From positions 2,180,925 to 2,244,924 of the forward strand of contig CM082583.2 in assembly GCA_040954595.2 (NCBI GenBank): a stretch of DNA of 64,000 nucleotides, read 5' to 3'. The notes under the pieces are model-generated. The model saw only the letters and a list, made by a program, of their open reading frames with translations. It did not search any database and was not told the DNA's origin. A program made the position numbers and the translations under genes. Positions 15,550-53,500 of the stretch are shown here, piece after piece. Numbering within the stretch: the first letter of the stretch is position 1; the number at the start of each line of letters is the position of its first letter. This stretch comes from Balanoglossus misakiensis (taxonomy: Eukaryota; Animalia; Hemichordata).

Positions 15550-15659
15550 AGCGTCAACCAACTTTACGTTCAGCAAATCGTTTTAACCGAAACTCCACGT
15601 TTTCACCAAAGTTCCATAAAAACCAAAATGACGGCAACAACTTGCAACACTACAACAGG

Positions 15660-25354: not shown

Positions 25355-27672
25355 AGGTGTGTGAAGTTGGTTACTAGTTCCTAGTTCCTGGTTCCTTATT
25401 CGCCCCAGCCTGAATAAGGAACTGGGATTTGAAGTTAGTTACTAGTTCCTGGTTCCTTATTCGCCCCAGTCTGAATAAGGGACTGGTAACTAGTTCCTGG
25501 TTCCTTATTGGGTTTCCTACGGACTGGCTAAGCTGATGCTCCGGCAATCTGGAGAGGAAACACGCGTACATTGACCACGATGATCAAGTCACATTCCCGG
25601 TTACTTTAATATTGCCCGATTCCCGGTTACTTATTGCCCCAGTCTGAATAAGGAACTGGTTACTAGTTCCTGGTTCCTTATTCGATTCCCAGTTACTTAT
25701 TCGCCCCAGTCTGAATAAGGAACTGGTTACTAGTTCCTGGTTCCTTATTGGGTTTCCTACGGCCTGGCTTAGCTGATGCCCCGGCAATCTGGAGCGGAAA
25801 CACGCGTACATTGACCACGTTGATCAAGTCACATTTCCTTCGGCCTAGCTCGGCTAAAGCGCTGGCGCTCTATGACACAGACTGGCGTAAGTTAACAACG
25901 GTGATTACGTCGGATTTCCTACGGACTGGCTAAGCTGATGCCCCGGCAATCTGGAGAGGAAACACGCGTACATTGACCACGATGATCAAGTCACATTCCC
26001 GGTTACTTATTGCCCGATTCCCGGTTACGTATTGCCCCAGTCTGAATAAGGAACTGGTTACTAGTTCCTGGTTCCTTATTCGATTCCCAGTTACTTATTC
26101 GCCCCAGTCTGAATAAGGAACTGGTTATATACTCGTTCCTTATTCGATTCAATCTGAATATGCAGGTAATTCCCAGTTCCTGATTTTGTTCCTTATTCAA
26201 AATAACACATTTCACCCATTCTAAGGGACCGTTCAGTTTTTACGGCCGGGGGGGGGCGTTTGTGTCATCGGTTTTCTAAATCAGGCCGACCCCCCCTCCT
26301 TCACCCAGGACCAAAAAAATGATGACCCTTCCCCCTTTGACAGACCTAAAAATATGATGACCCCACGCCGAAAACATTCGCCGTCCTGATCCTATGTACT
26401 ATATGCAACAAAGGGAATGAGGCTCCTCACACCTCAATTATAAATTTCTTAAAGTATTATTGAAGTTTATAATAGTATATCATTGCAATAAAGAAATCTA
26501 CGAACAAATGAAAATGACAAGTCAAAACAATAGTTGCTAGAATTGGTAAAACAAGAAAAGTGGCGGGGAATGGAGGGGGTGGGTGTGGGAGGGTGTCCCC
26601 CTCCCACATTAGAAAATTTTGTAAAATATGTAGCGCAAAGTTGAATTTTAATGAACTCAAAAGCAAATTATCTCAATGTTCGGGAGGACCAATTTTACTT
26701 TTTGCCACTCCACTCAAAGTTAGCAGATTTAGCGTCATCTTCGTCATGACATCAATTATAAAACTTCTAGTATATAGAAGATGCAGGGCGAATCTATTAG
26801 TTATGCGAAATGGTTTAAACGATTATTCCCCTTTATGTATTTACTTTGTTAAATATTATCATTGGTGGGGTTGGGGTGGCAAGCACTCTGCTCTGGTACA
26901 CTGGACAAACCAGCAAAAAAATGAAATGTGGCGGAGAATGAAGGGGTGGGTGTGGGAGGGGTGTCCCCTCCCCCTCCCACATTAGAAAAGTTTGTAAAAT
27001 AAATGGCGCGAAACTGCAACTCAATTTTGTGGACTCAAAAGCAAAAGTTCGGTGGCAAAAGTATGTACCCCCCCCCCCACTCAATGTTTAAAAAACCCAG
27101 ATGACCCCCCCCCCTTTTGGACTTCAAAATTTAAGTGACCACCCCCCCCTGGATTTTGCCGCCCCCCCCCCCCCTCTACCCGGCCGTTAAAAACTGAACG
27201 GTCCCTAGAGTGCCGGGGCATCAGCTAAGCCAGGCCGTAGGAAACCCAATAAGGAACCAGGAACTAGTAACCAGTTCCTTATTCAGACTGGGGCAATACG
27301 TAACCGGGAATCGGGCAATAAGTAACCGGGAATGTGACTTGATCATCGTGGTCAATGTACGCGTGTTTCCTCTCCAGATTGCCGGGGCATCAGCTTAGCC
27401 AGTCCGTAGGAAATCCGACGTAATCACCGTTGTTAACTTACGCCAGTCTGTGTCATAGAGCGCCAGCGCTTTAGCCGAGCTAGGCCGAAGGAAATGTGAC
27501 TTGATCAACGTGGTCAATGTACGCGTGTTTCCGCTCCAGATTGCCGGGGCATCAGCTAAGTCAGGCCGTAGGAAACCCAATAAGGAACCAGGAACTAGTA
27601 ACCAGTCCCTTATTCAGACTGGGGCGAATAAGGAACCAGGAACTAGGAACTAGTAACCAACTTCACACACAT
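25355..27672. mobile_element. MuDR/Foldback-like non-autonomous element with modular tandem-repeat arms
   Basis: Inverted arms from a(g/t)gtgtgtgaagttggttactagttcc; 9-bp TSD cttttagcc / cttttagtc; internal units actagttcctggttccttattcgccccagtctgaataagg. Confidence 0.75.
26225..27205. mobile_element. PIF/Harbinger-type MITE inside the foldback
   Basis: TIR gggaccgttcagttttta / taaaaactgaacggtccc; flanks taa/tag; subterminal G/C runs. Confidence 0.7.
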
Positions 27673-27700: not shown

Positions 27701-28564
27701 TGATGATCACAAGGTACTGGTGTTGAAACTTCAACTCCCAACCCTGTAATAAAATAGTTACAAATAAAAGTCAGCAACATCACTACTAAAATGTGAAATG
27801 TTAGAAAAACAAAGTGGACATGAACTGCACAGGATTTACTAGTATTAAACTACATGAGACAGAGCTAAACTATTGCATGATGCACATATTTATCACTGTT
27901 GTAAAACTTACATTTCAGGTGATTGGTGCTAAATATCATGGTCACTATTAAATAAATGCCAATAACAACCGCCAGCGATCAACATCTTAGATACTAGTAT
28001 TTGGGGTCACTTGACTTGAAAGAACATCAAAATTGTATCACTTGTGTGGGTGACAATGTCAATGGAATAAGAACACTTACTCGGAACACTGGCTTTAAAA
28101 CTGTCGTCCAGTACAACCTCTCCACACACCATAGTGTCAAACTCGGCACCCTGCAACTCGCTTTCGAGAACGTCTGACGCAGGTTCCTTAGACATCTTGT
28201 CTGGTTTCGAAGTAGGGATATGTGAGTCATACCGAAGACGTTTCCTACACTTAGGAGCTGGTCTGTGTCTGTGTGATAGGGGCTTTCCCCAGTTGTTGTA
28301 CTCGAACAAGGTTGGTACTGGATGGTTAGGTGAAGGGCCCTGACCCCCTTCAAAATGTCGCGAACACAACCTTGAGAATTTGTTGGGCTTCCAACACGGT
28401 TCTCTCCTTACCATACGAATCCATTGTAACCGCTGCCGCCGAGACTTACTTTCATTGGGAAACGGATGGAAAGTAACATTTTGCATCCATGGATATTTTT
28501 GCAGTTTTTTCAGCTTTGCAGTGGCAGAATTGCAACCAGGAGCTTTACAAAAGAAATTAGGCAT
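27701..28564 (-). pseudogene. THAP-domain transposase 5' part (2 exons), truncated
   Basis: MPNFFCKAPGC...FHPFP...WIRMVRR...WKPNKFSRLCSRHF...PVPTLF (C2CH THAP). Donor at 28080 (GTaagt) and acceptor before 27743 give RLGVEVSTPVPCDH; then interrupted by the hAT end. Confidence 0.85.
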
Positions 28565-29871
28565 CTTATGGACGTGTCCGCTTCTAAAAGTTCCAAAATT
28601 TGAAAAATAAATACTTATAGGACGTCTCCTTCTCCAGACGATCAATTTCTTACATCTAAGCGGCAGCCATTTTATACAGCGCCCTCAAACGGTGTTTAAC
28701 CCCAATAATCTTTCGTTTTCATGCATCTCGAATATCGCGTATTGCGGTCCGTGTAGCGATCGCGGTTATCAACCGAGTACGGACAGGTGTTATTTGAGAG
28801 ACTCTCAACGGATATACTACGATTTGATCTCAGAGGTGAGATCGATATGAGATCTCTTGTATAGAGATTACGGGAGATGCGAAGAGGTAAAAACGTGAGC
28901 TAGGCGTCAAAAGAGGATCACAGCTTCGGAATTTCCAGCCAATCGTCTTTCTGTATTTCTGCAATTCCTATAGCTATAGCTAGCCAATTAAATTGAACGA
29001 ACGATTTCGTCGGGAACCTGAGTTAGACTCCCCGGAGGCGAGATGAATTCGACCCGGTATCGTCCGATTAGCGCACCGGCAACGAATTTCTAATGATGCG
29101 ATGAATCAGAGTAGTATTTTATTAAATATTCCGACCGGACTTCGTAGTGTAGTTTCGTAATTTCGAAAAGTTTAGAGTTGTTTTGATGTAATGACAAAGT
29201 CGACGTTCTATATCGTGCATCACACGTATACATGCTCCGAGGTCGTGCCGTCGTACCACGACCAATGAACGATCTTCTCCCCGTCACGGTTATATTAGGG
29301 AGTCGAACAGACCGAAGTTTGATACATTGAGAACGGTATAAAAAGGGCAACGATGAGCTGGGAACGTTGCTCCACTCACCCGATCCGGCAACCACAGAAA
29401 CTAACCACGAGTACGAGACGATGAATTATTTCAGGCGGGACCAAGCAGGGAGACGAACACCCGTGCGTCGCCAACCAAAACACCGGTAACGTATCTACCA
29501 GCACCGTCGCCGAGGCGGATCCATCTTCCGCCCCATCTGCAGATTCTACACATAGCCGGCGCCGATCGTCTACACCCCAACCCATTCATCACGGCGATGT
29601 ATTCACCCCACTCGATCTCAATCGGGTGGAGAGGGTGGAGGACTCTCACAGTTACCGCCAATACTCCCATGGGGTCATCAAAGCAGAGACAACCACCAAA
29701 CGTACGTATACTACTTGCTGAAGAACCCGGCCACAACGTCAACTTCTAGTCCTCCGGTGGAGCCAGGGGCCATTCTGCAGCTGCCGACCGAACCGAGGAG
29801 GCCGCCAGCGGCAGCGACCGTCTCCTCCTGCGCCCGTACAGTAGGCCTAGCCGTTACGTTCAGCAAGGGAC

Positions 29872-30292: not shown

Positions 30293-32349
30293 AAGGGACC
30301 AGGCCATCTGCCAATACCCCGGGGACCCACACCGAGAAGAGAAGGCGGGGAACCTCGTCGGCGAAGAAGGGCACTGCCGGCCGGCCATGCCAGAACCAGC
30401 ACCGGTCGACCTAAGTTTACAGCTACTCGAGCTCAGCCCTGAAGACGAGGAGAACTTAGATCTGCCGCCGAGGACACCAGGGAGAGACGAGTAATGTTAC
30501 TATTGAACTCTTTACTAGACTTCAGTCATTTTCGAACATTTTATGCATTTTTCTTATCTAAAAATTGTAAAGCTGTACGGGGTGGGGTGTCCCTTCCCAT
30601 AAAAGGGAAATCCGGTGTAGCTGATTTCTACATAATTTGGAGCTTTGAGGTCACTCTTTCAGAAAAAAATCATATTCACCCTGTATAAGTTGCGCGATTT
30701 TTTACAAAATCGAGGGAAAGTTGGCAGAATTTCCAATATGGCGTTTACTGTAATTTGAATCATGGGAAAAAAGCGCCATGACCAACTTCCGCCCACCTTT
30801 GGTGTGGGTGATACCATTTTCCGATTGGTGTCACTGGGCGACAGACTAGGTGTATTTGCATAGCTATTGTGTGTTCTTTGCATCAGTTGATAAACAATCA
30901 TCAGCAAAGTCGAAAATTTGTCATAACCCATGAAAAATATGCGAATATGCTTAGAACATTTAAAAATAGCGTCAAGGACACTGTGGTCCCATTTGAGGAT
31001 TATGCGGAAACAGTGAGACACCAGAATAAAAATTACAGGTGACATTGCAAGCAGATATGATCTTACCATATAGAAATATGGAATGTAAAAATTAACAAGG
31101 AAAATGCCCAATAAACTGTCATGTGTCATGGCAGTCTTACAAGTGGTGCTAGAAAAAATAATTGTCCAAAAATTGTCTGTACAAATACATATGAGAAGCA
31201 ACTTCTTTCAGTCAGCCCTGGAACAGACAGTCACACAGACACACACAGTGTTGCAGCCAGGAATTTTATAACAGGGGACATTGTGTCCCCGCACTATTTA
31301 TTTTGGGGGACATTTTGCATATTTTGGGGACAACATAAACCATGGACATACATGTATGTCCATGCATAAACGTTACACGTACACATACATACACAAAGAC
31401 ATACCACATTAAATTGTATAATTTGATGTTTTTTAATAAAACACTCAGACTCCTTGGTCTGTGTCACAATGACCATATACTTTAACCTGCATTGTGTACA
31501 AATTGTACAAATCCCGTGTTCACAACAGTCAAGATCTGATCACTATTGTTCTGATAATTAAAGTCACTGCCGATTACTGTTTATGCGTCTTTGTTTTACT
31601 TTTCTGATTTTGATTACATTCAAGATCTTTTAAATCGGCTTCATCTCTAAATGAAGTTTTTACCAAAATATCAGAAAGATGAATAATCCCCCCTTTTTAT
31701 ACAAATAAGGATGAAAAACAGACTTGTTGTTGACAAGAATTCTGGCTTTATTCCAAATAACCTGCTCAGCTGGAGGGGTGGAGGAAAAATGACTAATTTA
31801 AATTCTTTCAAGTCCTTTATTATTTTAGGAGTAAATTTGAGAAAACTTGTTCCCCATTATATAAAATCCATAGGGTATTTCTAAAAGCTAGGGAATTCAT
31901 TCCAAGATCAACTGTTGTCTGACTAGGGGTCCTAAGGCATGTAATAAGAATACTCTCAACTCTGTCTTTTTGGAGTCTTATCCAAGAAATTAGCAGTTGA
32001 CTCTACATTAAAAGTTCAGTGGGAGGATTTTCAACAAAACTGAGACTGCTGGTACTCATGTGGACAGAGTTGGTTTCAGAAGCAATTGGAGTCACGGTAG
32101 TTCACTGCCTGCACAGCTGAGTCCGATATATAGGCGTGATATCGCAATGTATTACTATTACAATTCCCAAGAGGGTGGCTGCGTGTACGTAAACTGTATC
32201 AGTCGGCCCGATCGCCAAAAAAGGAAATCTCATGAATATTTAAATTTGGTGTCAGAGGTAACTTTTCGGCCAATCAGATCGCTCGAGACAATCAGTTCCA
32301 GAGAAAATTCGCATGCCCTCGGTTTTAGTTCTGTTAAATGAAGTCAAAT

Positions 32350-32910
32350 TCGCCTAAATACTCAAATTTTTGCCTGAGGATTCCTTGAAAGGTGCTCTAG
32401 CGATCTACCGATGCGTTTTGAAATCGACCGTTGCGTTTTTTAGCGACAGCTGATAATTTCTGCCATGCCCAAGTCCCCACTGTCAACAACGGCGATGATG
32501 GCTATTCTTGTATGCTTCCGGGTTTTAGTCCGGAGTTTTACAAATGAAGTTCAATTAAATAAAATCTACGTCGCCTAAATGCCCAGGATTTTGTCCGAGG
32601 ATACATTGATACACGCTCTAGCTATCTACCGATGTGTTTTGAAATCGATCGTTGCGTTTTTTAGCGATAGCTGATAATTTCTGCCATGCCTACGTTCTCG
32701 ATCTCACTGTCGACAACGGCGATGATGGCTATTCTTGTATGCTTCTGAAGTTTTAGTGCGGGGTCTTAGTTCAATTAAATAAAATTTAGGTCGCCTAAAC
32801 GCTCAGGATTTTGTCCGAGGACACATTGATACACGCTCTAGCGATCTACCGTTGCGTTTTGCAATCGGCCGTTGCGTTTTGTAGCGACAACTGATAATTT
32901 CTGCCATGCC
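32350..32910 (+). repeat. ~220-bp tandem repeat (about 2.5 copies) inside the MITE
   Basis: tcgcctaaa...gctctagcgatctaccgatgcgttttgaaatcg...gctgataatttctgccatgcc starts at 32350, 32571 and 32791. Confidence 0.85.
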
Positions 32911-32940
32911 CTCACTATATACACAAGGAGCTCCGTGCTA

Positions 32941-33071
32941 TATTTAAAGCCGCATTACTACGCGATATATATCCGCATATGCTAATTTATTATGAATATT
33001 CATGAGAACCCGTATAAAAGTTAGCGAATATCCGCACATGGGCTCAGTACCATTCCTTAACCACGGAGGCA
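32941..33071 (+). repeat. Split direct repeat A1 (A2 at 38547-38678)
   Basis: tatttaaagccgcat(t/c)actacgcgatatatatccg...ccttaaccac(a)ggaggcagca; the two copies differ by 1 substitution and 1 indel. Confidence 0.92.
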
Positions 33072-33087
33072 GCATATAGCAGAGAAG

Positions 33088-34441
33088 ATGGCTCAACCAC
33101 CTGTACGGGTAAACCCGCCACCACCACCACCGGCCACAGAAGAGGCACAGCCGAGTGCTACCCAAGCTGTCGCAGCGTTCCTAGCTGCACACAGGCCTTC
33201 TACCAGCCAAAGTAGTAATGCCGGCTCCCAATCTCAGCCAACTCAGCAAAGGGCGACGAGCCGACCAGATAGTCAAGTTCCGGGTCCGAGTCGTCAAGGG
33301 AACGCTCAAACGACCGCAGATAATGAGGTACATATAAATCCTTTCTCGTGTACACCTTATTTATTGTTCATTCCGATGTCTAGACATGTACGTTTCATTC
33401 GGCATGCCCCATTACTTTGTTAACGGGTTTTCTCGACGCCAATTATACTACAGCGTACACCTGTTGAATTCCTGCATACCACCTGCCCCCTATGTGAATG
33501 TTTGTATCCTCATTTGAATATGCATGGAGTGGAAAACCGTGACATGGCCCCACTGCCAGGTGCCTGTACATTTTCGATAGAACAATGCGGCCCAGTTTTA
33601 TGAAATAGAGCATTGGGGCTCGATGATTGAAATAGAGCAGTGAAGCTCGGTTATTGAAATAGAGCAGTGAAGCTCGGTTATCGAAATAGAGCAGTGAAGC
33701 TCGGTTATTGAAAAAGAGCAGTGGAGCTCGGTTATTGAAATAGATGTATGTGTATACAAAATAACAATAATGAAGCAATGAGGCTCATAATGAAATGAAG
33801 GTACGAGGCTCTGAAAGGAAGGAGAATTGATTCAAAATAATGTTAACCTTTGTACATGGGCGTTAGTGTTACTGTGATGTACTCATTACAAAACGGTGTT
33901 TGTATTGTAGGTGAATGAACAGCTATTGGAGCTGAAACAGAAACTACTGTTATTGGAAAAGAATGCTGGGACAGCATCTGTCGAAGAGGCTTTACAAAAG
34001 CTAATGGAGATGGCCCACAATCCAGCAGTCGTATCCCGAACCCAACTACTTAATGCTTTGAGGGCACTGGTCGACAGAGCGACAGCCACCGCACATCCAA
34101 AATTGCATCGTTTTCGAGCGGTGCTCTCCCAGTTTGAATCTACCTATTTCGGGGAAGATGCGGGGAGATTAATTATTCTATTATTGGGAAATAAAGAAGA
34201 GGAAGAAATAGCTTCAAAAGTGTACAAGTTTATGAAACACTCTGGCTCATCTAATCAGTTCTCTCAATATGAATCGGGACGATATATGCCCTATCCACTT
34301 CGTGCATCATATACCCGCACACCGTATTCTCCCTACTATAGAAGAGAGCAACCAAGAAATTCGGCTGGAAAATCCGGAATTAAATGCTATGTATGTGCGA
34401 AGTTGGGGCACATTGCGAGGGACTGCCCCGACAAAAAATAA
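33088..34441 (+). CDS. gag: Spliced Gag-like ORF1 (exons 33088-33327 and 33911-34441)
   Basis: Pro/Gln/Ser-rich 80-codon exon ending gag|GTacat; acceptor ttgtattgtAG|gtg in phase 0; coiled-coil and C-terminal CCHC knuckle CYVCAKLGHIARDC. Confidence 0.75.
33601..33745 (+). repeat. 27-bp tandem array (5+ copies), each with a GAGC-N6-GCTC hairpin
   Basis: tgaaatagagcagtgaagctcggttat repeated head-to-tail. Confidence 0.9.
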
Positions 34442-34698
34442 TGTATTGTACTGATAATCGTATAACTTTTCCGATGATGCATTGAAATATTCAAAAAAAA
34501 TAAATAAGTAATATGACTCTGTAATCTCAGTGTTTGTGTAGTTTATTTTCCTTTCCCTTCGGACAGGGGGGCTAACAATAACAGCCCTATGCCTTTAAAA
34601 GCAACCTGCCTTCGCAGGGTCCTGTCTGGGGGGTCGCCCTCGAAAAAAAAAAAAAAAAAAAAAGTGTCCTAAGCTTTGCTGTTTTCCTTTTGTTTCAG

Positions 34699-36879
34699 TT
34701 TTTGACCCCACAGTGGGAACTGAACTACCCCGTTCATCAAGCAAGTGGTGGACGTGTCTCGTATTCATGGGTATCATGGGAGGGCGCCCCCAGACAGGAA
34801 GTGATGGGAGGGAATCCAGCTGTCGAAGAGGTCGCCTTTGGAAGAACCCTGTCCCGCCCCCAAGAGTTAAATTATAGAAATGCAGCTGAATTTAAGGCTG
34901 GTGAAGTCCATCAACATCTTCAAGAATGGGATCGCATCACAAATGGGCTAGACAACAAAGACTTAGTTATGTCATGGTTGCGGGAGAAAGTCAAAATCTC
35001 GGATTACACTCGTCACTTTTCGGGACAATTTAAAGGAGTCGAATACGATCACGATACACCCCCTCACAAGTTATTTTACAACAACCCGAATTGTAGTAAA
35101 TTTTGGAGAATTTATTGCTAATACCCTGCAAGATAGAATCAAGTCTGGAGCCATTTCGGTGTGGGGCAGAGTAGGGTGTGCCCCTCCCCCTCATATAGTT
35201 ATGCCCATCACAATTGAACCCCAAAAGCCTCGTCTATGTATCGATATGAGATTTCTCAACCTTTGGATGAAGGACATGCCTTTTAAATTGGATAAGCTGA
35301 TAGAAGTTTCAAAATACCTGCAATCGTGTGATTATCAAATAAAATGCGATGACAAGAGCGGATACGATCACATCCTACTGGCAGAGGACGAAAGGCGTTA
35401 CGTTGGTTTCCAGTGGGCGGGATCCTGGTATGTGAACAACACTCTACCGTTTGGATGGAAATTATCCGCCTTCATATACCAGAACGTGGGATACTGTATT
35501 ACCAGCTATGCGAGGTCTCTTGGCGTACCATGTATACAGTACATCGACGACAGACATGTGGGCGCACTATGCTTACCACAAGCAACTACCGACAACGAAT
35601 GGACCAGGTACCAACTCACTGAAGCTGCGGCCTATATATTAATCAAGTTATGTATAGATGCGGGATATTTTATATCTTTAGAAAAGAGCGTCCTCAGACC
35701 AACACAGTCTCTAATTATGCTGGGTATGACCGTCGACACAGTAGCCAACGCATTCTCAATACCCGACGAGAAGAGGCATACTTTTATAACGCTAGTTAAC
35801 CAAGTATTGGACGGTCGTATCGCTCCATTATCATCCCTACAAAGGATCATGGGAAAGTGTGTCTCGTTCTCCCTTGCTATCCCGTGTGCTCGTCTATATA
35901 TCCGTCAGATGGCACGCTCAATTGCTGCCGCAAATAAACAGGCAAAGTACATGGTGCCAATCAAAGGCCCACTCAGAGAAGAATTGCAAGAGTGGGTACA
36001 AGTGGTCACAACCCCAAGGACATTCCATTGGCCAACTGAAAACCATGTCCGGGTAACCATGTCTACAGACGCCAGTTCTTACAAATGGGGTGCTGTATTA
36101 CATAGATCGGACACAGAAGCCACGGATACCACTGTCAGTGATATGTGGGAGACAGTATGGAGACAAAACCCAATCGTCCTGAAGGAGGCGGAAGCGCTGT
36201 CTCGAGCACTGATCGCATTCCAGGGATCTGTTAAGAACACGCGGCTCGATGTACACGTGGATTCTATGACACTGGTCCAAGTATGGTCAAATGGAGTCCC
36301 AGGCACCAAATCGAACGCCCTCAACGAAATTATCAGGAAAATATTCGTTTTTGCGTGGACAACAACGTCACACTGAAGCTAATACATGTCAGATCCGCAG
36401 AAAACGAAGCTGATGGAGCATCTCGCGATATCTCACTAAAGAATTCAAGTCTGTCTCCACGTGCGTGGCAATTACTGGAAGAGAAATTTGGCCCACACCA
36501 CGTTGATGCAATGGCAAACAGCTCAAATGCAAAACTAACACGGTTCGTCTCCCCATTTCAGCAAACCAGAAGTGAAGGTGTCAACTTTTTCCAGCACACA
36601 TTTTCTAGGCAGGAAACCTTATATGTCTACCCGCCATTTCCATTGGTGCATGCGGTCCTCCGACACATCGTAGATAAACGGTATACAGCCACAGTCATAG
36701 TCCCAAGAGGGCGCTTCTTGGAGCCGTTCTGGCCACTGATACGTCAAAAAGCAACACACACGAAGCTAATTGGTAAAAAGGGAGAAGAAGGGGTCATTCA
36801 AGCGCCATCGCGAAATGGTTACAATGAATTTCTACTTCGCTGCGATTTATATGCAGTGATTTTCAAACCCAGCACTTAA
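34699..36879 (+). CDS. pol: Reverse transcriptase / RNase H / DNA adenine-MTase-like polyprotein (two 1-nt frameshifts in T-runs)
   Basis: KPRLCIDMRFLN, DDKSGYDH, LPFGW, YIDD; RNase H STDASSYKWG, LKEAEA, VHVDS, NEADGASR; MT-like VDAMAN...YVYPPF...VIVP. Shifts at ~35101 and ~36350. Confidence 0.88.
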
Positions 36880-36994
36880 ATTCCCAGTAATTATAATGTA
36901 CAAATACATTTCGACACAATGGCATCCATATGTGACAATATTAGGCTCAATATCGCATCTAAACTACAATAGTATTTCCTTTGTCTCCCATCAG

Positions 36995-38254
36995 ATGATA
37001 TGCTATATATGTGGCACTACAAGCAAGACCACCAATACTGAATGTGATGTATGTTCTACTACCCTAGTCTCTCTCACAACCCCACACACGGGTCACAAGA
37101 AGGGTAGTCCGCCGGATATCCAGGCTATAAACCGACGCATGCATGAGGTTCTCGGTCAAAGATCACTATACGAAATACAGAAAGACAGACTCATACAGCA
37201 GTTCGAGCAGTTTCTAGCCGCTACATCACCAACTACCAATTTCATAACGGCAAAACCTGAGGATGTCGTCAGATTCCTAATATACAAGGATAAAGACGCT
37301 AAAACGCAAATACACGTTGATACTTGTGACTTTTATGGAAGGACAGGCACAATGCCGTGTCATTGCCCCAGACGACTGAAATCAAGTACAATAAAAAACA
37401 TGGTTTCAAAACTCGGCGTCTGTTTCAACTCAGTGTCGAATAATGCAAACCCGGCAAAATCCACGATGGTATTTAGGTACGTAAAAAAAATATCGGAAGA
37501 ACAAGCCAGAGCACATATTACCCCTAGACAAGCTAAACCACTGTTTCTAGAAAAAATGAAACGTATATTCAACCACGTATTAAGTAAGCTAGACGTAGCA
37601 AGATCGCTCACCCAAATTTACATACTGGCCAGGGATTTAGCGTTCTTTAAACTACTTGCATTTTCCGGCGACAGGGCGGGTGATCTGGGGCATGTAAAAA
37701 CACAAGAAATTCTACGTTTTCCAGACAACTCCGGCTTCATTTTCAATCACACCTATGGAAAAACTTTGAGGGGCGCATCTTCAAATATGTTTGCCCTTAA
37801 ACGATGTAAAGATGTGGATATTTGCCCAGTACACGCTGTAGAACAATACATCACATTGGCGGAAGGGATTGGGGTAAACTTGCGCAGAGGTCATCTATTT
37901 CGGCCAACAACCCCGAGCGGTGAAGTCGAGCAACGCCCTCTATCATCCCAAACAGCGTACAGTCGCCTCAAAGTGTACCTACAGGAGCTAAACATGGATA
38001 GAGGGGAAACACCACACAGTCTCAGAAGCGCATGTGCGATCACATTATCCTTGGCGGGGGTGGAGTTGAGTGAGCTTATGCGTCACATAGGTTGGCGTTC
38101 AGAAGATACAGCCAATCATTACACCAAACTATCTTCTGTGTCAGCGGCCCAAGGACCAGCCCAGAAGTTAAAAGAGGTGACTGATGCAGGAGAGATCCTG
38201 ACGCGAAACTACGAACAGGCGAATGATCTAACAGACTTCACTATGGCATTCTAA
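36995..38254 (+). CDS. ALOG-domain tyrosine recombinase
   Basis: CxxC-CxxC, then ALOG-like FLIYKDKDAKTQIHVDTCDFYG...PCHCPRRL...NPA...YVKKISEEQARA; catalytic motifs GDRAGDL, GKT, HSLR, HIGW, HY; uninterrupted ORF (frame open from 36896). Confidence 0.92.
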   Translation: MICYICGTTSKTTNTECDVCSTTLVSLTTPHTGHKKGSPPDIQAINRRMHEVLGQRSLYEIQKDRLIQQFEQFLAATSPTTNFITAKPEDVVRFLIYKDKDAKTQIHVDTCDFYGRTGTMPCHCPRRLKSSTIKNMVSKLGVCFNSVSNNANPAKSTMVFRYVKKISEEQARAHITPRQAKPLFLEKMKRIFNHVLSKLDVARSLTQIYILARDLAFFKLLAFSGDRAGDLGHVKTQEILRFPDNSGFIFNHTYGKTLRGASSNMFALKRCKDVDICPVHAVEQYITLAEGIGVNLRRGHLFRPTTPSGEVEQRPLSSQTAYSRLKVYLQELNMDRGETPHSLRSACAITLSLAGVELSELMRHIGWRSEDTANHYTKLSSVSAAQGPAQKLKEVTDAGEILTRNYEQANDLTDFTMAF

Positions 38255-38466
38255 ACCAGTCCGCTCCTTAATGGCACAATAACCTAATTTACAGATGTAT
38301 GGGGCTTGATTTCTGTACATAATCGTAGCAAGAATAAAGTTCATATTTTAGAATTGACACGTGTTTTTATATATATTATGGGTGTAGGAGTGGGTGTGTA
38401 TGGGTATTAAAGGATTGGGTGGGAAATAGGAAAAGTTGTGCATCCATAAAGCAGGGAGTTTCGCAT

Positions 38467-38549
38467 AACATAACATAAAACCCGGACCCACTCCTATAAC
38501 AATAGGCATATTCTAGAGCGGAGTTATAAGGCTTTAAATATTATAGTAT
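38467..38549 (+). repeat. Split direct repeat B1 (B2 at 38813-38895)
   Basis: 83-bp copies of aacataacataaaacccggacccactcc...gctttaaatattatagtat, identical by eye. Confidence 0.92.
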
Positions 38550-41358
38550 TTAAAGCCGCATCACTACGCGATATATATCCGCATATGCTAATTTATTATG
38601 AATATTCATGAGAACCCGTATAAAAGTTAGCGAATATCCGCACATGGGCTCAGTACCATTCCTTAACCACAGGAGGCAGCAGTTAGAGCAGATAAGGTGG
38701 AAGGTCAGGGCATATAAGTGGCGGGCGGGTGGGGGTTTATGTGTACCGATGAGCGATTTGGGAGTTTTGCCCACCCTCCCACCCTTCAGCAACCCCGCTC
38801 TGGAATTTGGCCAACATAACATAAAACCCGGACCCACTCCTATAACAATAGGCATATTCTAGAGCGGAGTTATAAGGCTTTAAATATTATAGTATACACA
38901 ACGGCAATGATAACAATCTTGTGCGTGAGCTAGGCCGTGGCTCAGTCACTCTCGATCCGAAAGTTTCATGATTTTTTTTATTCACAATCACCAATTACCG
39001 TAAATGATAGAAAGAGTCGAATTCACAAAATATGACGATTACCTCATGAATGTGCGGTGTCAACTTGGAAACTGTTAGCAACTTTGCCAAACGTAAATTA
39101 CAACATACGCGCCGCGCAATAGCTCACAACACCGCTCATGCACGCTCACAGTCACCGTACAGAGTATACTACGAGTATCGCTGTTGCCCCTGTATCAGTT
39201 GCGTCTTTATACCATACATGTAGCTGATATAGTCCGACTAGCACAAGTATGGATCGTTATACTGCCCTGCTCTTCACTTAAATCAACTTGGGTTTTAAAT
39301 ACGGCCGCACTGACACTGGATAGTGAGGCCTAAAGTTTACTGGAAGCATTTACCGAGTCATCGTCGGCTCGCACGGGTTGTTGGATCGACCAAAATTTCC
39401 CTAACGAACCAATGCGGAAACCGCTATATAAAAAAACACCGTCCACGGTCAAAGGATTTGTTGTGCCAAGGTCTATTTTTCGGATACCAAGAGCTTGGCG
39501 GGCGGAGAGGTTACCTAGTATAAATGCAAGACAGCCTCAGGATGTCAGTGTTAGCAAAAGGCACTGGCCTTGTTGACATTCCTTCGCGCGTGTCATTTGT
39601 GCATATTTCTGATTGGGCGAAACGTTACCTTTGACACAAATTTAAATATTCATGAGATTTCCTTTTTTGGCGATCGGGCCGACTGTGTATCAAATTCAAC
39701 GATAAACCACAGTCCCTCGAGGGACTCAAGTTTGCTACAAGTTTGCTATGAAGATGTTATCAGTATCGATCACAGGTCGTAAGGTCATAAACTGTGACAA
39801 GTGAATCTCTTTGTACGCGTACACCCATCAGTTATCAGGAAACAATGTATATTAGCGCCGGCTATTTTTTACACTCAGAGTGCGCGCCCGTGGTGACCCG
39901 CAGTATGCCAGAAAGTGCGCCCGTGCAACACTGCACACACTCACCTGCCACTGGTAATTAAAAATTTGATAGCTGGTGGTCTCTGTAACAGCTGGCCTAT
40001 TTAAGTTATGTAAACATGTCTTAGTTCAGGGTAAATAGTAACTTTAAAAACAACTGGGCAATTGGTTTAGGAGAAGATTTGCTAACCAAAAACAAAGAAA
40101 CTTACAAAAAAACTTGCTAAATATTGAATATTTCTGATGTCAGAATTGAATAAGAGTTGCACATAAACATGTATGTGTTATGAAATTATATCCTAAATGT
40201 CAAAGCAATCAGAGAAAATAAAAACAAATTTCAAAGCAATCCAATAAGCAGTTTCACAGAAAATATTTGTTCAAAAGTGGCAAAAACACAATTTCACATT
40301 TTCCCAGCTAATTTGCATATTTTTGGCAATGGCAACTTCATTTGAACAAACTCCCATCTAAAGCCCTGCTTGCATCTACACACCAAATATCGAGGTCATA
40401 TGCGCAGCAGTTTTCAAGTTTTTGATGTGAACGGACATACATACAGACATACATACATACGTACAGACGCAACCAATCCCATAAGGTCCCATGGTACATA
40501 CCAATGGGACCTAAAAATGTGTTGAACATGTCCGAAATTAACCCTTACCCTACCGGTTATGGTACCTGCTACAGTCACAAGTCGTTGAAAATATGTATAC
40601 CAATGTACATACTGTTTTACTGAGTTAGATAGCTTTTGTTTCTTTGCCATGTGTGAGTTGAATTGCTTGATTTTTCTGTATCCACCGTTTATGACCAGCT
40701 TGCCCTGACAAAATTACCAGCTGAGGCAACTAAGTGTCTTAGTTAAAATTCTCCATGGTCAAGGTATGAACTTGTCCAACATTCTACTCTTCTAGATTTC
40801 ATTTCTTACCTGCAATGGAAATTCTTTTCTTTTTCAGCTTGTATGTGATAAGTTCTCAGTTGTCACCAGAATCCAGATCATCAGGAATTGAAATGTTGGA
40901 AACTGACACATTTAAACTCCATTGTTACCAGACATTAACAGGTAGGTCAACAAGGATTGCAGGTTCAAGTTCTAGCATGGCCTTTACTCTTTTCTCATTC
41001 TTCTTTGCCTCCATGGGTAGACGGCCAATGGTGATTTCCACCTGTTCTGGCTGAATGAATTAGGAAAAAAACTTTCCAAGTTTATCAGATTGTCGGCATA
41101 ATACTAATAGAAAGCTTATGGTGACAACAGAACAAATTGAAGTATAGACTATTGTGGTATGCATACAAAGTCTATGTTATTGCCTGTTGGTTATTGCTGT
41201 GTGTAGAAGAAAACACACCACACTTTCGGTCCCCCCCTTGTGGCGAACGTTTGAAATCCTTGATTTTGCGCATGGGTTCACAGCAACTCAAAAGTCTCAT
41301 ATTTGAGTTCACACTGACAGACAACAAGCTATGTCAATGCTAGAAGTCTGCAGATTGT

Positions 41359-43260
41359 TGGGGGAGTTGCCATGTTCCTTGATTATGAAAAAGCCTTCGA
41401 TAGCGTTAACTGGGACTATCTTGATGAAACTTTACGACGTATGAATTTTGGTCATTCCTTTCGTCAATGGGTAAAAACTTTCTACACGAACATTCAGAGC
41501 TGTATTTTATACAAGGGTTGGTCTTCAAGTTACTTCAGGTTAGAAAGGGGTGTCCGTCAGGGATGTCCCCTCTCTGCACTTTTATTTGTAATAGCAATAG
41601 AGTTTTTAGCTTGTAAGATCAGACACGATAAAACTATCAAAGGGTTTCGTCTGCCTGCTGGTAATGGTCGTGCCAAAGAAGCAAAGATATATTTACTTGC
41701 AGATGATACAACAATATTCGTTGCAGATTTGTCTTCTGTTGTGTCTGTTCTCAAAGTAATGGAGAAGTTTCAAGGATGCAGTGGGCTAAGGTTAAATAAA
41801 AAGAAAACGCAGGCTTTTAAACTTGGTAATTTAAGAAATTGTAACGATAAAGTGGGTGATATAAGTTGGACTGACAATCCTGTAAAAACTCTTGGAGTAT
41901 ATTTTGGGTATGATGATGCTCTGTGTAAGCAGTTAAACTGGGATGATAAGTTAAAATCATTAGGTAAAGTTTTGGAAATGTGGGGAAGACGGCAACTCAC
42001 GATTTATGGCCGTGTTCTCATTACCAAGTCTCTTGCTGTTTCAAAAATTATGTATTTATCATCAGTAATTGGTATTCCCAATGATATTCTCTGTAAAGTA
42101 CAACGTCTCGTTGACAGTTTTGTAAAACGTAAAAGGAGAATTTCGAACAAAATTCTTGAAAGTGGCTACAAGCTAGGAGGAGTTAATCATATTAATGTGA
42201 AATGCCAAGTGGAAGCAATGATGGCTCTTTGGGTTAAAAGAATAATAATGTGTAAAGACGAGACATGGGCTGTCTTGCCCTGGTCATATTTTCTTTTAGA
42301 TAATACCACAAATTTATTGCATCAACACTCAATTTGGCAAAGGGTTCCTGATTTTCTTTTATCTGTACTCCCTGAATTTTATGTAAATGTACTGAATGCC
42401 TGGTATGCGGTGAAACACAATGCTTCCCGTGCAGGGAACCGTACCCTTGTCTGGTCCTCCAAATTCAGGTGTTTTTATGCAGCTCACTCTGAAAGTGATG
42501 ACTATGATGTCACACTTGGCGTTTCTAAATCTCCACAAATTAACTTGTAAGGTGTTGTATACTCATCTCATTCAGAGGCACTCAGTACAGGCTAGCGATA
42601 AACTCTCAAAATGGTTTTCTAAGTTAAATATCACCCCTGTAAAGCCAGAGAGCGACTGTTACAAAATCTGGCTGAGTGTGTACAAGTTGACTAAAGAGAC
42701 CCAGTTAAGAGAGTTTCAGTGGAAATTTCTACAACGTTTATTACCATGTAACAAGTATTTATACTTGTGGAAGTTAAATGAGTCAATGTTCTGTCCTCTT
42801 TGTCACCAGATTGACTCTCTGGAACACAGATTTATTTATTGTCAAATAGCTGTGAGATGCTGGAAAAAGCTGAAATACGTCATCTCTAAATGTTTTGAGT
42901 GTAGAGAAATAACACCATCAGACATTATTTTTACAAAAGTTGGCGAGAATGTCAAACCCAAAGAAAAACGTTATGTTTTTCAGCTTTTAATTCTTCTTGG
43001 GAAATGGAGCATCCATAAGTACTGGGTGACGAATGAAAACACACCGATTGAAGTTTTAATCAAAAATGAGTTTATGTTAAGGTATAAGATTGAAAAACAA
43101 ATGGATGCGAAAGCTGTTGTGCTAGAAACTTTTCAGAAAATTACGAGTTTACTGTAATTTTTAACCTCTTCAGGCCCGTGCAACAATACTGTCTTTTCTA
43201 TATTTATATAAACATGTAATTGAGGTGAAGGTTTAAATAAAAGATAAAAAAAAAAAAAAA
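41359..43260 (+). mobile_element. 5'-truncated L1/Tx1-clade LINE
   Basis: 15-bp TSD aagtctgcagattgt (41344-41358, 43261-43275), AATAAA and poly(A) tail. Confidence 0.92.
41372..43157 (+). pseudogene. LINE ORF2 fragment (RT + C-terminal CCHC zinc finger), one frameshift near 42540
   Basis: LDYEKAFDSV, GVRQGCPLS, LADD, KTLGVYF, CPLCHQIDSLEHRFIYC. Confidence 0.9.
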
Positions 43261-43926: not shown

Positions 43927-45341
43927 TAGTCCATGGGCCAGGACCCGATTTTTCATGAATTGGTATCAGAAAGATGGACAAAGCCTCATGTGGTTTTTTG
44001 GAAAGGCCTATATCTCTAGATTATAAATTGGGGTGATAGCCCTGCCTATCGAGTAGCTTTCTGCATTTTTTCCCTCAAAAACTAATGTAAGAACATAAAA
44101 ATTTCCGACCCAAATTTTGGGGGTAGGGGAACTTTAAATTGCTGTATCTCCAGCAAAACTAAAGCCAGAACAGTCATTTGCCACTCAAATTGTGTGTTTT
44201 TTAGAACTCTACCAATATAATATATTTTGGTGGTAATTCGTTTTGAATTGAGGTCAATAGAGGTCAAAAGGTCATGAAATTTGGGTCATTCTGAAAATTT
44301 GTAGTATGACTATTTCTTGAACGATTGTTTTGAACTTAAGTCTTTAAATGTCATTCAGAAGATAAAATACTCTCCCAGAATCTATTTCAAACCAATAGAA
44401 AACCTTATTATTCATTTATGACCAGAAAAACACAAATAAGGAGAAACGACAGAAAGACATCCAATTTCCCACTCAGATTTAAGGGTAGGGGAAACTTAAG
44501 TTCTTGTAACTCCGGCAAAAATAAACCCAGAACAGTCATCTACCACTCAAATTGTGTGTTTTTAGAACTCTACCAATATAATATATTTTGGTGGTAATTC
44601 GTTTTGAATTAAGGCCAATAGAGGTCAAAACGTCATGAAATTTGGGTCATTCTGAACATTTGTAGTATGACTATTTCTTGAACGATTTTTTTGAATTTAA
44701 GTCTTTAAATGTCATTTAGAAGATACAATACTCTCCCAGAATCTGTTCTGGGTTTATTTTTGCCGGAGTTACAAGAACTTAAGTTTCCCCTACCCTTAAA
44801 TCTGAGTGGAAAATTGGATGTCTTTCTGTCGTTTCTCTTTATTTGTGTTTTTCTGGTCATAAATGAATAATAAGGTTTTCTATTGGTTTGAAATAGATTC
44901 TGGGAGAGTATTTTATCTTGTAAATGACATTTGAAGACTTAAGTTAAAAAAAATCGTTCAAGAAATAGTCATACTACAAATTTTCAGAATGACCCAAATT
45001 TCATGACCTTTTGACCTCTATTGACCTCAATTCAAAACGAATTACCACCAAAATATATTATATTGGTAGAGTTCTAAAAAACACACAATTTGAGTGGTAA
45101 ATGACTGTTCTGGCTTTAGTTTTGCTGGAGTTACAGCAATTTAAAGTTCCCCTACCCCCAAAATTTGGGTCGGAAATTTTTAGGTTCTTACATTAGTTTT
45201 TGAGGGAAAAAATGCAGAAAGCTACTCGATAGGCAGGGCTATCACCCCAATTTATAATCTAGAGATATAGGCCTTTCCAAAAAACCATGTGAGGCTTTGT
45301 CCATCTTTCTGATACCAAATTCCTGTCTGGCCCATGGACTA
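43927..45341. mobile_element. Academ-like foldback non-autonomous element
   Basis: Termini tagtccatgggcca / tggcccatggacta, 3-bp TSD tga; ~570-bp inverted arms and an internal ~370-bp-period tandem duplication. Confidence 0.75.
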
Positions 45342-49581: not shown

Positions 49582-49698
49582 TTGGTGGCAGCGGTGGGAT
49601 AGTGCTGTGACTGGAAGGGCCGTTACTTCTTTGTTGGGACTGTACCAGACTGATCGACATTACCCGCGGTTCAGAAGAAGTGTAGCATTCAACACAAA

Positions 49699-50565
49699 AT
49701 GGCGGCCACGTTGATGACTTGGGATGGGAGTGATGGTACGGAGATTGAGAGCCATATTTGTCAGGTGGAGGCATACTTTGTTGCCAAAGATGTTACAGAT
49801 GAACGGAAGAAAGTAGCCAGCCTCCATTTGTCTTTGAAGGGTGAGCCTAAGAACTTTTTCACGCAACTGCAAGCCAGCCAGACAGATACATTTGAAAATG
49901 CGTCAAAAGCCCTAAAAGATCGGTTCAAGTCGATGAAAACAACGACACAGTATCAGCAAGAACTGGCAGAACGCAAGCAAAAAGCTGGTGAGTCAGCACA
50001 AGAGTTGAAATTTGCCATCATAGACCTTGTTTCGCGTGCCTATCCCGAGGTCAAAGATGAAACAACGCGCCTAACACTGGCAGTTGCTCATTTCCGTACA
50101 GCATTACATGGTGACATAAGCAGGAAACTGTCCTGGATAACAACTGAAAAGGAGACTTTAGATGACTTAGTGAAACGAGCTGTACAGTTGGAGAGAGATT
50201 CCTCTTCAATCAGAATAGTAGAAAGTGGCGCTGCAAATAACACTGAGGATGCTGTTGTTACTGATGAACTGCTCAAAAAGTTAGACGAACTTGCGACCGG
50301 ACAGGCAAAGCTGGCAGGTACAGTTGCTGCAATACAAACACAACAACAACAGAACAGAAATGGTTATAATCAGAGGACACCACGAACCTGTTACACATGT
50401 GGTAAAACTGGCCATATTGCCCGGAATTGCCGTGCTGGTCAGCGAGGTCCGGTAGGAGCATTGAACAGGTTTCGGGGCCTGTGTCACAGATGTCAGCAGG
50501 TTGGCCATCGTGCTGCTGAATGTACAGCACCGGCACCAGTGCAAGCACATCCGGGAAACTTCTAA
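49699..50565 (+). CDS. gag: Gag with two CCHC zinc knuckles
   Basis: RKQKAGES, CYTCGKTGHIARNC, CHRCQQVGHRAAEC; intact 288 aa. Confidence 0.93.
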   Translation: MAATLMTWDGSDGTEIESHICQVEAYFVAKDVTDERKKVASLHLSLKGEPKNFFTQLQASQTDTFENASKALKDRFKSMKTTTQYQQELAERKQKAGESAQELKFAIIDLVSRAYPEVKDETTRLTLAVAHFRTALHGDISRKLSWITTEKETLDDLVKRAVQLERDSSSIRIVESGAANNTEDAVVTDELLKKLDELATGQAKLAGTVAAIQTQQQQNRNGYNQRTPRTCYTCGKTGHIARNCRAGQRGPVGALNRFRGLCHRCQQVGHRAAECTAPAPVQAHPGNF

Positions 50566-53500
50566 GGGCTGGAGGTGGTGGTCAGTCTCCTTCAGCAAGA
50601 AACCAGCTGACCGAACCTGTTGTGTCTGTTGCATCACTGGCGGGACCACTACCGAATGGTATTGAGATTGAAGGATTTATTGGAGGAAAGAAATGTACGT
50701 GGTTGATAGACACTGGTGCCCAGATAAGTGTTGTTGTTGATACATTGATTGAAGGAGCCCAAGGAACTCTTTTACCCCCACTTTATAACCCCCAAGGAGC
50801 GAATGGGAGCAGCCTTGGAACTGTATGTGATATTGTGACAGACTGCCACGTCGGTAAACATAAAGTCAGCCAGCACCGATTTACCGTAGTCAAACATTCA
50901 ACATACCCAGCCATCATTGGCATGGATATTTTCCCTTCATTGCCAATCCATTTGTCAATTGGGACTGATGTTTACTACGATTCCAGTTCGCTGTCACATG
51001 GCGAGAAATCACAGAGACTGGGCAGATCAAGGCATAATGAATGTAAAACGGACATGCGTCCACAACAGCCAACAATCTGTCGCATCCAAGCCAAAGAGCC
51101 AATCACTGTTTTGCCGCGGCGTATGTGTGTGATTGAAGGCACAGTGGAGTATAACTTGAGTCCAGGGACAGTTGGTATTGTTGAATCAGCAGGATCCGAA
51201 GGAAGTGAACGTATGGGCATTGGTTGTGGACGAGTGTTAGATGTAATACGTACCGGAAGCAAAGTCCTAATGCACATGACCAACCCATCCAATACTACTT
51301 GTGAAATTGCTGCAGGATCCACTATTGGTACATTTTCCACAAACATTTGCGATACACCACCAGTTCAGGCTGTGACTTCAAAGACTACAAAAGCACAGAG
51401 AGCAGCAAAAGTGGATAAAATGGCACGTTCTTTTGCTAGCGAAGCTGACATTACAGGGAGTGAAAAACACCGACTGTATAAACTGATTCAATCAAATAGT
51501 GATGTGTTTTCAGTCGAAGGAGAACTGGGGTTGACCGATAAGATAGAACATGAAATTCCTACAGGCCAGGCAGCTCCTACAGCTCAACCGCCACGACGTG
51601 TGCCCTTCAACAAACTGCATGAGGTGGAGAACTTCATACAGGATGGTCTGAAGGCAAATGTGATCAGACCGAGCCATAGCCCATGGTCGAGCCCTTTGGT
51701 ACTTGTGAAGAAGCAGAATGGCTCAACACGCTTCTGTGTTGATTTTCGACAGTTAAATGAAGTAACTGTTGGCGATTCATTTCCGATTCCACGAATTGAT
51801 GACAGTCTAGCAGCACTTGGCGGGGCAAAGATATTCACCACACTTGATTTAGCGAAGGGGTATTGGCAGTTACCTGTGAAGGAATCGGACCGCCACAAAA
51901 CAGCATTTGCCTGTCACAGAGGCTTGTTTGAGTTCAACACCATGCCCTTTGGGCTCAAGGGAGCCCCTGCAACTTTTCAGAGACTTATGACATCAGTTTT
52001 TAGCGAACTGAACTGGGAGATAGTGTTAATCTACCTTGATGATGTCATTGTATTTTCGAGCAGTTTTGATGAGCACCTGGAGCACCTGCGAATAGTGTTT
52101 GGAAAGCTTCGTGCAGCTTGCTTGAAATTGAATGTGGAGAAGTGTGTTTTTGCTCGGAAGCAGGTGAAGTACCTAGGCTATATTGTTGGCGAAGAGGGCA
52201 TACAACCGGACCCAGACAAAGTATCTGCGATTTCAAATTACCCAAGACCACAGTCTGTTGCCGAGTTGCGTCGCTTCTTAGGTATGGCGTCGTATTATCG
52301 ACGTTTCATCAACAAATTTGCAGACATAGCTCATCCCCTACATGAACTCACCCAGAAAAATGTAGGTTATAACTGGACCAATGCTTGTCAGGATGCATTT
52401 GATCAACTGAGAGAAAAGCTGATGTCATACCCTGTGTTGGTATATCCATGTTTCACAGAAGACTTTGTCGTTGAGACTGACGCCAGTGATATCGGTTTGG
52501 GTGCACTCCTTTGCCAAAGTGGCCATGTCATAGAATATGCGTCTAGAGCGTTGAACAAGGCAGAAAAGAACTACTCAGCAACAGAGAAAGAATGCCTTGG
52601 AGTTGTATGGGCCCTCGAGAAATTTGGCATGTACTTGGAAGGGAGACCTTTTACTGTGATAACGGATCACAAACCCCTGACGTACCTACGGCAACTGAAG
52701 CAACCTAAAGGAAAGCTAGCACGTTGGCGGGTAACACTAGACAACTACGACTTCACAATTTCACACAGGCCAGGGAAGTTGATGACTGTGGCTGATGCAT
52801 TGTCAAGAGCACCACATGTTCATGCAGTTACTTTGGCCGGCATTTGGACGATAGACGAACTAGTCAGACTACAGCAAAATGATCAACATGTTGGCATAAT
52901 GCGTCGTTGGGTAAAGGATGGCACAAAACCCAGAAACATTCCAAACCATGTCAACAGTTTCCTTGTCAAAGATGGGAAAATGTTGGACTTCCGTGACGAT
53001 TTGTTGGTTCTCAAGACAAAGAAGGGGGACATGCCAGTAGAACAAGTTGTTATTCCACAGACAGAAGCAGAGCGTGTACTCACAGCACTTCATGACGAAC
53101 TTGGACACTTTGGACCAGCTAAAACAAAATCAGCCGTCGGTTCAAGGTATTTCTGGTTTCACTGGAAAAGAGATGTCAATTTGTGGTGTCGCTCATGTCA
53201 GTCATGCTTACAGCGCAAAACTCCAACTATACCTGACCGCCCACCTGAAGGTGATTTACCAATTCCTGATCGACCCCTTCAGTGGTGGCACATGGATTTT
53301 GCAGGACCTTTACCTAAGACACCACGTGGAAACAGATACATCTTTTCGCTAACAGACCCAATCAGTAAATGGGTAGAAGCATTCGCAGTGCCTGATGAGA
53401 CAGCCAAAACAACAGCGGCCGTAATATATGATGAGATTGTTTGTCGATATGGAATACCTGAAGGGTTACATTCGGACCAAGGGAAAAACTTTGAAGCTTG

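Follow-up and report, generated by a model that had tools for sequence, protein, structure and literature searches.

A DIRS-order retrotransposon of Balanoglossus misakiensis with a predicted shared coding leader, three alternative acceptors and a stem at the pol acceptor

The window analyzed here, a stretch of 64,000 nucleotides from the genome of the hemichordate Balanoglossus misakiensis (GenBank assembly GCA_040954595.2, contig CM082583.2, positions 2,180,925 to 2,244,924 of the forward strand), contains a PAT-like retrotransposon with an ALOG-type tyrosine recombinase (YR), in which the open reading frames (ORFs) of gag, pol and the recombinase are preceded by a short coding exon. Quite probably, this element is expressed from one pre-mRNA that has one phase-0 donor, three acceptors and three poly(A) sites, and that yields three proteins with a common N-terminus. 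An original prediction from the sequence of the window held that a shared leader is spliced to alternative 3' sites, and overall this reading is supported. The leader-to-gag part stands on 12 gene models from Ptychodera flava; for pol and YR, we infer the use of the same donor from the phase, the lack of a conserved donor in gag, and the predicted proteins P0031/P0071 and P0034.

Leader exon, donor and acceptors

The leader (33088-33327, 80 codons, ending in GAG/GTACAT, the slash marking the junction) and the three acceptors (33911, 34699 and 36995, all in phase 0) are recovered with the same coordinates and phases when derived afresh, and the ORFs of gag, pol and the recombinase do not overlap, as was originally stated. 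The chance figure of 1 in 27 that accompanied the three coinciding phases is invalid because it is post hoc, the sites having been picked with the ORFs known; the observation rises above chance because it is conserved in relatives. When the 302 AG dinucleotides between 33340 and 38260 are scored blindly with a simple pyrimidine-tract model, the pol acceptor ranks first, the YR acceptor third and the gag acceptor 61st. No clear branch-point motifs are apparent at the pol and YR acceptors.

The ATG at 33088 is the first one downstream of the predicted start near 33046, and all four upstream ATGs lie 5' of that start, which is called from TATA and initiator consensus motifs; TATA-like boxes are present in 4 of 6 relatives, with variable spacing. 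Among the 12 loci read for the leader, four have an intact ATG exon of 41–54 low-complexity codons that ends in GAG/GTA in phase 0, four have a partial or frameshifted leader with the same donor, one has a different domain ending in CAG/GTG, and three have none. The nearest database relatives of the element are P. flava proteins, and 12 gene models of this species (NCBI-sourced) contain a homologous leader of 67–92 residues fused to gag at the junction predicted for the window; the F and H of the F-x-x-x-H motif of the leader (FLAAH, 33178-33192) are kept in 12 of the 12. A coding exon 1 and its predicted join to gag are well supported. In the predicted fold of the leader-Gag protein P0104, the helical Gag core is confident and the leader is disordered, with a short low-confidence helix over the motif, and a Foldseek comparison of this model with the PDB gives no match at E 0.001. 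As modeled, a disordered leader with one short helix over the motif would fit a docking tag, of the kind originally suggested as a possible aid to assembly or localisation. The first introns of several relatives (L010, L013, L017, L018, L023, L043 and L049) are T-rich and often contain tandem repeats, as does that of the window.

For the two downstream genes, there are predicted proteins from Mytilus and Lineus. The Mytilus model P0031 consists of a leader followed by the recombinase, and P0071, which was found with the N-terminus of P0031, has the identical 27 residues, ending in NLQ, followed by gag; in the Lineus model P0034, a leader domain runs into the first residues of pol. The presence of the same leader stretch before gag (P0071) and before YR (P0031) argues against an improbable alternative in which the acceptors are real and the leader donor serves gag only, pol and the recombinase being spliced from other donors that lie either in gag, which would produce a Gag-Pol-like fusion, or in another leader exon. 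Such donors would account for the lack of leader-pol and leader-YR models in Ptychodera and for the ab initio-type models that join gag to pol (P0105 and P0065); they are also in line with the several leader exons of a mollusc-type subgroup (L040, P0070, P0074 and P0083) and with the gag junction of the window, where the acceptor TAG/GTGAAT (33908-33916) would re-form a phase-0 donor, GAG/GTGAAT, stronger than the original one. However, 4 of the 8 gag exons contain no above-threshold donor and none is conserved near the gag end, and the poly(A) hexamers past gag favor a separate gag mRNA. A conserved donor at the 3' end of either gag or pol is rejected. Recursive splicing through the re-formed donor is possible in the window and is not kept in relatives.

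The plan originally proposed is not uniform across relatives: in mollusc-type relatives, the low-complexity leader is replaced by a more complex, multi-exon one, a globular N-terminal domain split over exons (L040:1621-2887; P0070, P0074, P0083, P0034 and P0069). No Pfam match to this domain was obtained for P0070 and P0034, the two proteins searched.

Conservation of the acceptors in relatives

The relatives are 79 loci from a metagenome scan, with a median pairwise recombinase identity of about 41% among those compared. As the acceptor in each, we took the AG with the highest score ahead of a conserved protein anchor, whatever its phase, and sequences were clustered at 80% nucleotide identity. 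Viral contigs furnish no true relative, only a weak integrase hit (L080), which was left out of the counts, as were a false zinc-ribbon match (L022) and anchors near contig starts (L009, L036 and L045 for YR; L004, L012 and L056 for pol).

For 29 of the 33 recombinase anchors (15 of the 19 clusters), the best AG within 150 nt of the zinc ribbon falls in phase 0, and 27 of 32 relatives have it exactly 14 codons ahead of the first cysteine of the ribbon. At pol, the best AG has phase 0 for 16 of the 18 anchors (9 of the 11 clusters). Sites inside coding sequence, taken as controls, give phase 0 in 18 of 38 and 8 of 25 cases. The leader is joined on in the DNA at none of these 33 recombinase and 18 pol anchors. 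An in-frame ATG ahead of the zinc ribbon is missing from 13 of the 19 recombinase clusters, and 11 have a frame that starts at the TAG of the acceptor itself; the similarity of the Pol proteins starts right after the acceptor, ahead of the first ATG (residues 2-20 onward of the window protein match L014, L043 and others). For gag, the distance from the acceptor to the LLGNK motif is 90 codons in the window and 90-91 in L002, L007, L008, L013 and L017. Because the clusters have common ancestry, this pattern demonstrates conservation and not independent origins. The two comparative tests set with the original prediction, of conserved acceptors and phase and of the use of independent ATGs or promoters, do not refute it: relatives retain phase-0 acceptors at the corresponding places in front of the recombinase and pol, often with an in-frame TAG and without an ATG, as well as a leader exon that ends in GAG/GTA.

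These observations also bear on the possibility, rated very unlikely, that gag alone is spliced whereas pol and the recombinase are translated from their own ATGs, through internal promoters or reinitiation, the pyrimidine tracts being poly(A)-related U-rich elements. In the window, an ATG stands directly at the YR start; in 8 of 11 clusters, pol has in-frame ATGs close to its start; and hexamers lie just upstream of the YR tract, all of which would suit this possibility. It is contradicted by the 13 ATG-less recombinase clusters, by the constant codon distance and phase 0 of the AG, and by conserved pol residues located ahead of the first ATG.

Poly(A) signals

A poly(A) hexamer follows the stop codon by 37-78 nt at 11 of 14 gag ends (the window included), is present in the last 82 nt before the YR acceptor at 11 of 16 loci, and comes after the recombinase in 14 of 27, compared with a background of 346 of 2463 random 150-nt windows (14%). 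Because of these signals after the genes, gag, pol and the recombinase look like alternative last exons. The succession of a hexamer and an acceptor recalls the operons of nematodes. In an operon-like unit, poly(A) cleavage after one gene would expose the next acceptor to a host spliced-leader RNA, and the hexamers upstream of the YR acceptor in the 11 of 16 loci fit such trans-splicing. However, a non-coding host leader needs an ATG in each gene and would leave the phase unfixed; both expectations fail, and there is a conserved cis donor whose phase matches, which makes this explanation extremely unlikely.

A predicted long-range stem around the pol acceptor

The pol acceptor, for which splicing from the shared leader is the preferred reading, is bracketed by a predicted long-range stem with one arm in the intron and the other in the pol coding sequence (whole-region z -3.2). 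At matched sites, 11 of 12 pol acceptors have a z of less than -2, as against none of the 14 recombinase and none of the 6 gag acceptors, and the arm sequences are unrelated; 9 of the 27 consensus pairs are compensated in 7 alignable sequences, three of which are near-identical. When 56 positions along the element are scanned as a sliding control, the stem at pol has the lowest energy by far (-51.4 versus -35.3); three other positions have a lower z (from only 8 shuffles), the window's own z of -2.9 being modest. Rfam identifies nothing real in the element, only two weak snoRNA matches far under threshold, so the stem belongs to no family described there. A run of about 22 A (34643-34664) lies in the loop, directly past the 5' arm. 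Two small hairpins are located upstream of the stem (34543-34618), and similar hairpins with A/C-rich loops are found in L007, L023, L043 and L049.

Because the 5' arm is intronic and lies 3' of the gag poly(A) signal, the full stem forms only in unspliced RNA. Most likely, the stem tunes the use of the pol acceptor, probably by damping it, and it may in addition label the unspliced RNA for packaging or priming.

The proposed expression scheme and the points against it

In the preferred scheme, a single promoter in A1 would give rise to the pre-mRNA, in which the phase-0 donor of the leader would be spliced to one of the three acceptors; the site of cleavage, past gag, pol or the recombinase, would fix the product, with nearest-first use making Gag the most abundant, and Gag, Pol and the recombinase would all begin with the same leader. 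The template would be RNA that is unspliced and read through all poly(A) signals, the only RNA to carry B1-A2-B2; the processed mRNAs would end before these repeats, so that the repeat-guided cycle could not finish. Copies would keep their introns because only unspliced read-through RNA is copied, a less firmly supported part of the scheme. An artificial intron placed in DIRS-1 was lost on transposition (PMC7192593; this and the other papers cited are drawn upon in part), and therefore the keeping of introns would need selection of unspliced RNA. According to the same source, no primer is known for DIRS-order reverse transcription. A further, tentative possibility is that, clade-wide, the common leader brings the enzymes into Gag particles and the stem, complete only in unspliced RNA, serves as the packaging or priming signal, so that RNA would be sorted without frameshifts or a protease.

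A number of findings weigh against the scheme. All three splice junctions are predictions, made from sequence and gene models. The donor motif by itself occurs at chance frequency in the window (4 matches versus 3.15 expected). The gag acceptor is weak, the acceptor of rank 2 (34567) is strong and unproductive, with a stop after 2 codons, and the YR acceptor is followed directly by an ATG (36995), so that this copy alone leaves an independent recombinase start possible. The canonical hexamer before the YR acceptor is absent in the window. In relatives, the best gag acceptor is in phase 0 with the anchor in only 5 of the 14 scanned, another 5 showing a distance of 86-92 codons with stops or shifts in between and 4 being unclear; an in-frame ATG precedes the first conserved motif in 8 of 11 pol clusters; and one of the in-ORF controls itself tilts to phase 0 (18 of 38, p=0.051). 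Clusters share ancestry, so p-values overstate independence. The database proteins, P0031, P0071 and P0034 among them, are gene predictions, and P0071 may reflect read-through of a donor rather than a splice. When six Ptychodera leaders are used as queries, 10 of 10 hits are leader-gag proteins, with no leader-pol or leader-YR among them, a result weak as evidence. The last gag junction of oyster-/mussel-type proteins reads phase 1 (P0073 and P0078 versus P0074 and P0083), and one donor for all three genes is thus not universal. The stem test was passed at two further loci and failed in L051, L041 and L018.

Identity and state of the element

The element encodes a CCHC knuckle in the first ORF, a reverse transcriptase (RT; PF00078), an RNase H (PF17917) and a weak Dam-like methylase (PF05869) in pol, and, in the last ORF, an N-terminal zinc ribbon, ALOG (PF04852, E 5e-20) and a phage-integrase domain (PF00589), all in a single frame. 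The methylase match (E 0.0032) is short of the Pfam cut-off; the region is in frame with the RT and is conserved across relatives. The catalytic residues of the recombinase (R227, H341, R344, H364 and Y376) are all conserved, and the enzyme, encoded on the same strand as pol, is of the tyrosine type rather than a DDE integrase.

Split direct repeats in the arrangement A1 ... B1-A2-B2 and the methyltransferase-like domain 3' of RT/RNase H are PAT-like features, the Gag zinc knuckle is a Pat1-like one, and the combination of a zinc ribbon, ALOG and a recombinase catalytic domain in a single ORF is that of the ALOG-type YR retroposons. Ngaro elements have no methyltransferase domain and are rejected on account of the weak Dam match and the conserved region; a strict DIRS1-like assignment is rejected because the termini are direct repeats, and of the 25 longest inverted pairs listed, not one links the ends of the element. 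By the features set out in PMC4157794, the element is PAT-like, neither Ngaro nor strict DIRS1; the tree built here comprises the relatives found here only. The 99% identity of A1 and A2 suggests a recent insertion.

Contrary to the original prediction of one ORF for RT, RNase H and the methylase, pol of this copy is split over three frames (34699-35121, 34967-36376 and 36235-36879) by two frameshifts, near 35103-35121 and 36346-36376. Translated from their own pol acceptors, four of four relatives have a single open frame of 724-750 codons. With one frame in relatives, programmed pol frameshifting is ruled out, and the earlier view that the element relies on neither overlapping frames nor frameshifting is upheld. 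To judge from its frames, pol of this copy is damaged or mis-assembled, and the copy as assembled lacks the intact set of gag, pol and recombinase of an autonomous element; having no whole Pol, it would need a partner copy for mobility.

Table 1. Predicted features of the element (window coordinates; slash, splice junction)
Feature	Position	Strand	Details or basis
Terminal repeat A1	32941..33064	+	TAT at start; 99% identity to A2 over 124 nt; carries predicted promoter
TATAAAA (33013-33019) and initiator-like TCAGT (33044-33048)	33013..33048	+	Predicted start near 33046
Coding leader exon, 80 codons, Pro/Gln/Ser/Ala-rich	33088..33327	+	ATG start, 240 nt
Phase-0 splice donor GAG/GTACAT	33325..33333	+	GAG/GTA ends leader in 8 relatives
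First intron (predicted), with 27-bp tandem repeat 33601-33744	33328..33910	+	Sequence
gag last exon: acceptor gtattgTAG/33911 with in-frame TAG; helical domain and CCHC zinc knuckle	33911..34441	+	PF00098
AATAAA after gag stop (predicted poly(A) signal)	34499..34504	+	Hexamer
Stem 5' arm (intronic)	34620..34641	+	Pairs with 34780-34799
pol last exon: acceptor gtttCAG/34699; RT, RNase H, Dam-like methylase; two frameshifts	34699..36879	+	Pfam, ORF frames
Stem 3' arm (pol coding sequence)	34780..34799	+	Pairs with 34620-34641
Recombinase last exon: acceptor cccatCAG/36995; zinc ribbon, ALOG, catalytic domain; intact frame	36995..38254	+	Pfam
AATAAA after recombinase stop, 5' of 3' repeats	38333..38338	+	Hexamer
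Internal repeats B1 (38467-38546) and A2 (38547-38670)	38467..38670	+	Joint at TAT
Terminal repeat B2	38813..38895	+	TAT at end

The retrotransposon and a 220-bp tandem array (32394-32911) are enclosed by perfect 49-nt inverted repeats (32200-32248 and 39637-39685), and the retrotransposon may sit inside a terminal-inverted-repeat element. Among the relatives, elements lie head to tail, with copies directly adjoining, in L017 (1-958 and 1562-6908) and L002 (10206-11167). Elsewhere in the window, there are long open frames of Ty3/gypsy-type gag and pol (49654-54104), an RT of the LINE type in two frames, a further RT fragment and a THAP-domain ORF (the latter three at 41318-43157, 15550-16389 and 28007-28684 on the minus strand), as well as two foldback-like inverted repeats, 43960-45318 (576 nt) and 25686-27642 (403 nt), which are 98% complementary and contain internal tandem repeats.

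Relation to known elements

The closest described elements are the ALOG-containing DIRS1-type retroposons of marine animals (Iyer and Aravind 2012, PMC3537659), which share the Gag zinc knuckle, the RT and RNase H, the adenine-methylase-like domain, the combination of a zinc ribbon, ALOG and a catalytic recombinase, and the direct terminal repeats; unlike the present analysis, the main text of that paper mentions neither splicing nor introns, and the passages considered contain nothing on a leader exon, acceptors, the arrangement of poly(A) signals or a stem. PAT and Pat1-like elements (Szitenberg et al. 2014, PMC4157794; Piednoel et al. 2011, PMC3266345) have the methylase domain, the A1-B1-A2-B2 repeats, the Gag zinc finger and a forward recombinase in common with the element of the window; they are described in terms of the order and overlap of ORFs, with no splicing in the parts drawn upon, whereas the ORFs of the window are non-overlapping and, by the scheme, acceptor-dependent.

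Outside this group, the foamy virus (PMC3705302) also uses one 5' splice site with alternative 3' sites and makes Pol apart from Gag, a suboptimal 3' site setting the ratio; the acceptor for its pol is situated within gag, and Pol has a start codon of its own downstream of it. The element of the window differs in that gag also appears to be spliced, that the shared leader is a coding one, and that a poly(A) signal is predicted for each gene; furthermore, it is not a virus and has neither env nor integrase. In plant Ty1/copia elements (Oberlin et al. 2017, PMC5580714), splicing with early termination produces a short GAG RNA dedicated to gag, in surplus relative to the enzymes. There, pol is expressed from the full-length RNA, whereas pol and the recombinase of the window are apparently spliced too, and the leader would be all that the unspliced RNA encodes. 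The scheme can be described as a foamy-virus-like shared 5' site combined with a copia-like splice-and-terminate gag RNA, and would belong to neither. For the domesticated DIRS gag exons of TMPO/LAP2alpha and ZNF451 (PMC4495291), an own acceptor and poly(A) signal have been inferred, i.e. the same cassette; that work concerns exaptation by the host, not expression of the element itself, and the likeness to gag of the window is one of cassette layout.

In the literature searched, supplements, subscription-journal reviews (Poulter and Goodwin) and Repbase entries aside, we found nothing on DIRS-order elements being expressed by splicing; such expression is not described in the passages considered of PMC3783388, PMC6681497, PMC5633606, PMC12440569, PMC9341512, PMC5890265, PMC12477816 and bioRxiv 10.64898/2026.05.21.726589.

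Implications

With its three predicted junctions, as many poly(A) sites and a single RNA stem, this clade offers a concrete answer to how the downstream genes of DIRS-order elements could be translated and how their reverse transcription could begin. If the scheme is true, introns would survive the RNA cycle of this retrotransposon and every one of its proteins would require splicing, and ORF-based annotation would truncate the proteins of such elements. These elements may also be a source of ready-made acceptor-ORF-poly(A) cassettes, of the kind inferred for the gag exons of TMPO and ZNF451. Should the stem prove to be a packaging or priming signal, it would supply the missing cis-signal of DIRS-order replication.

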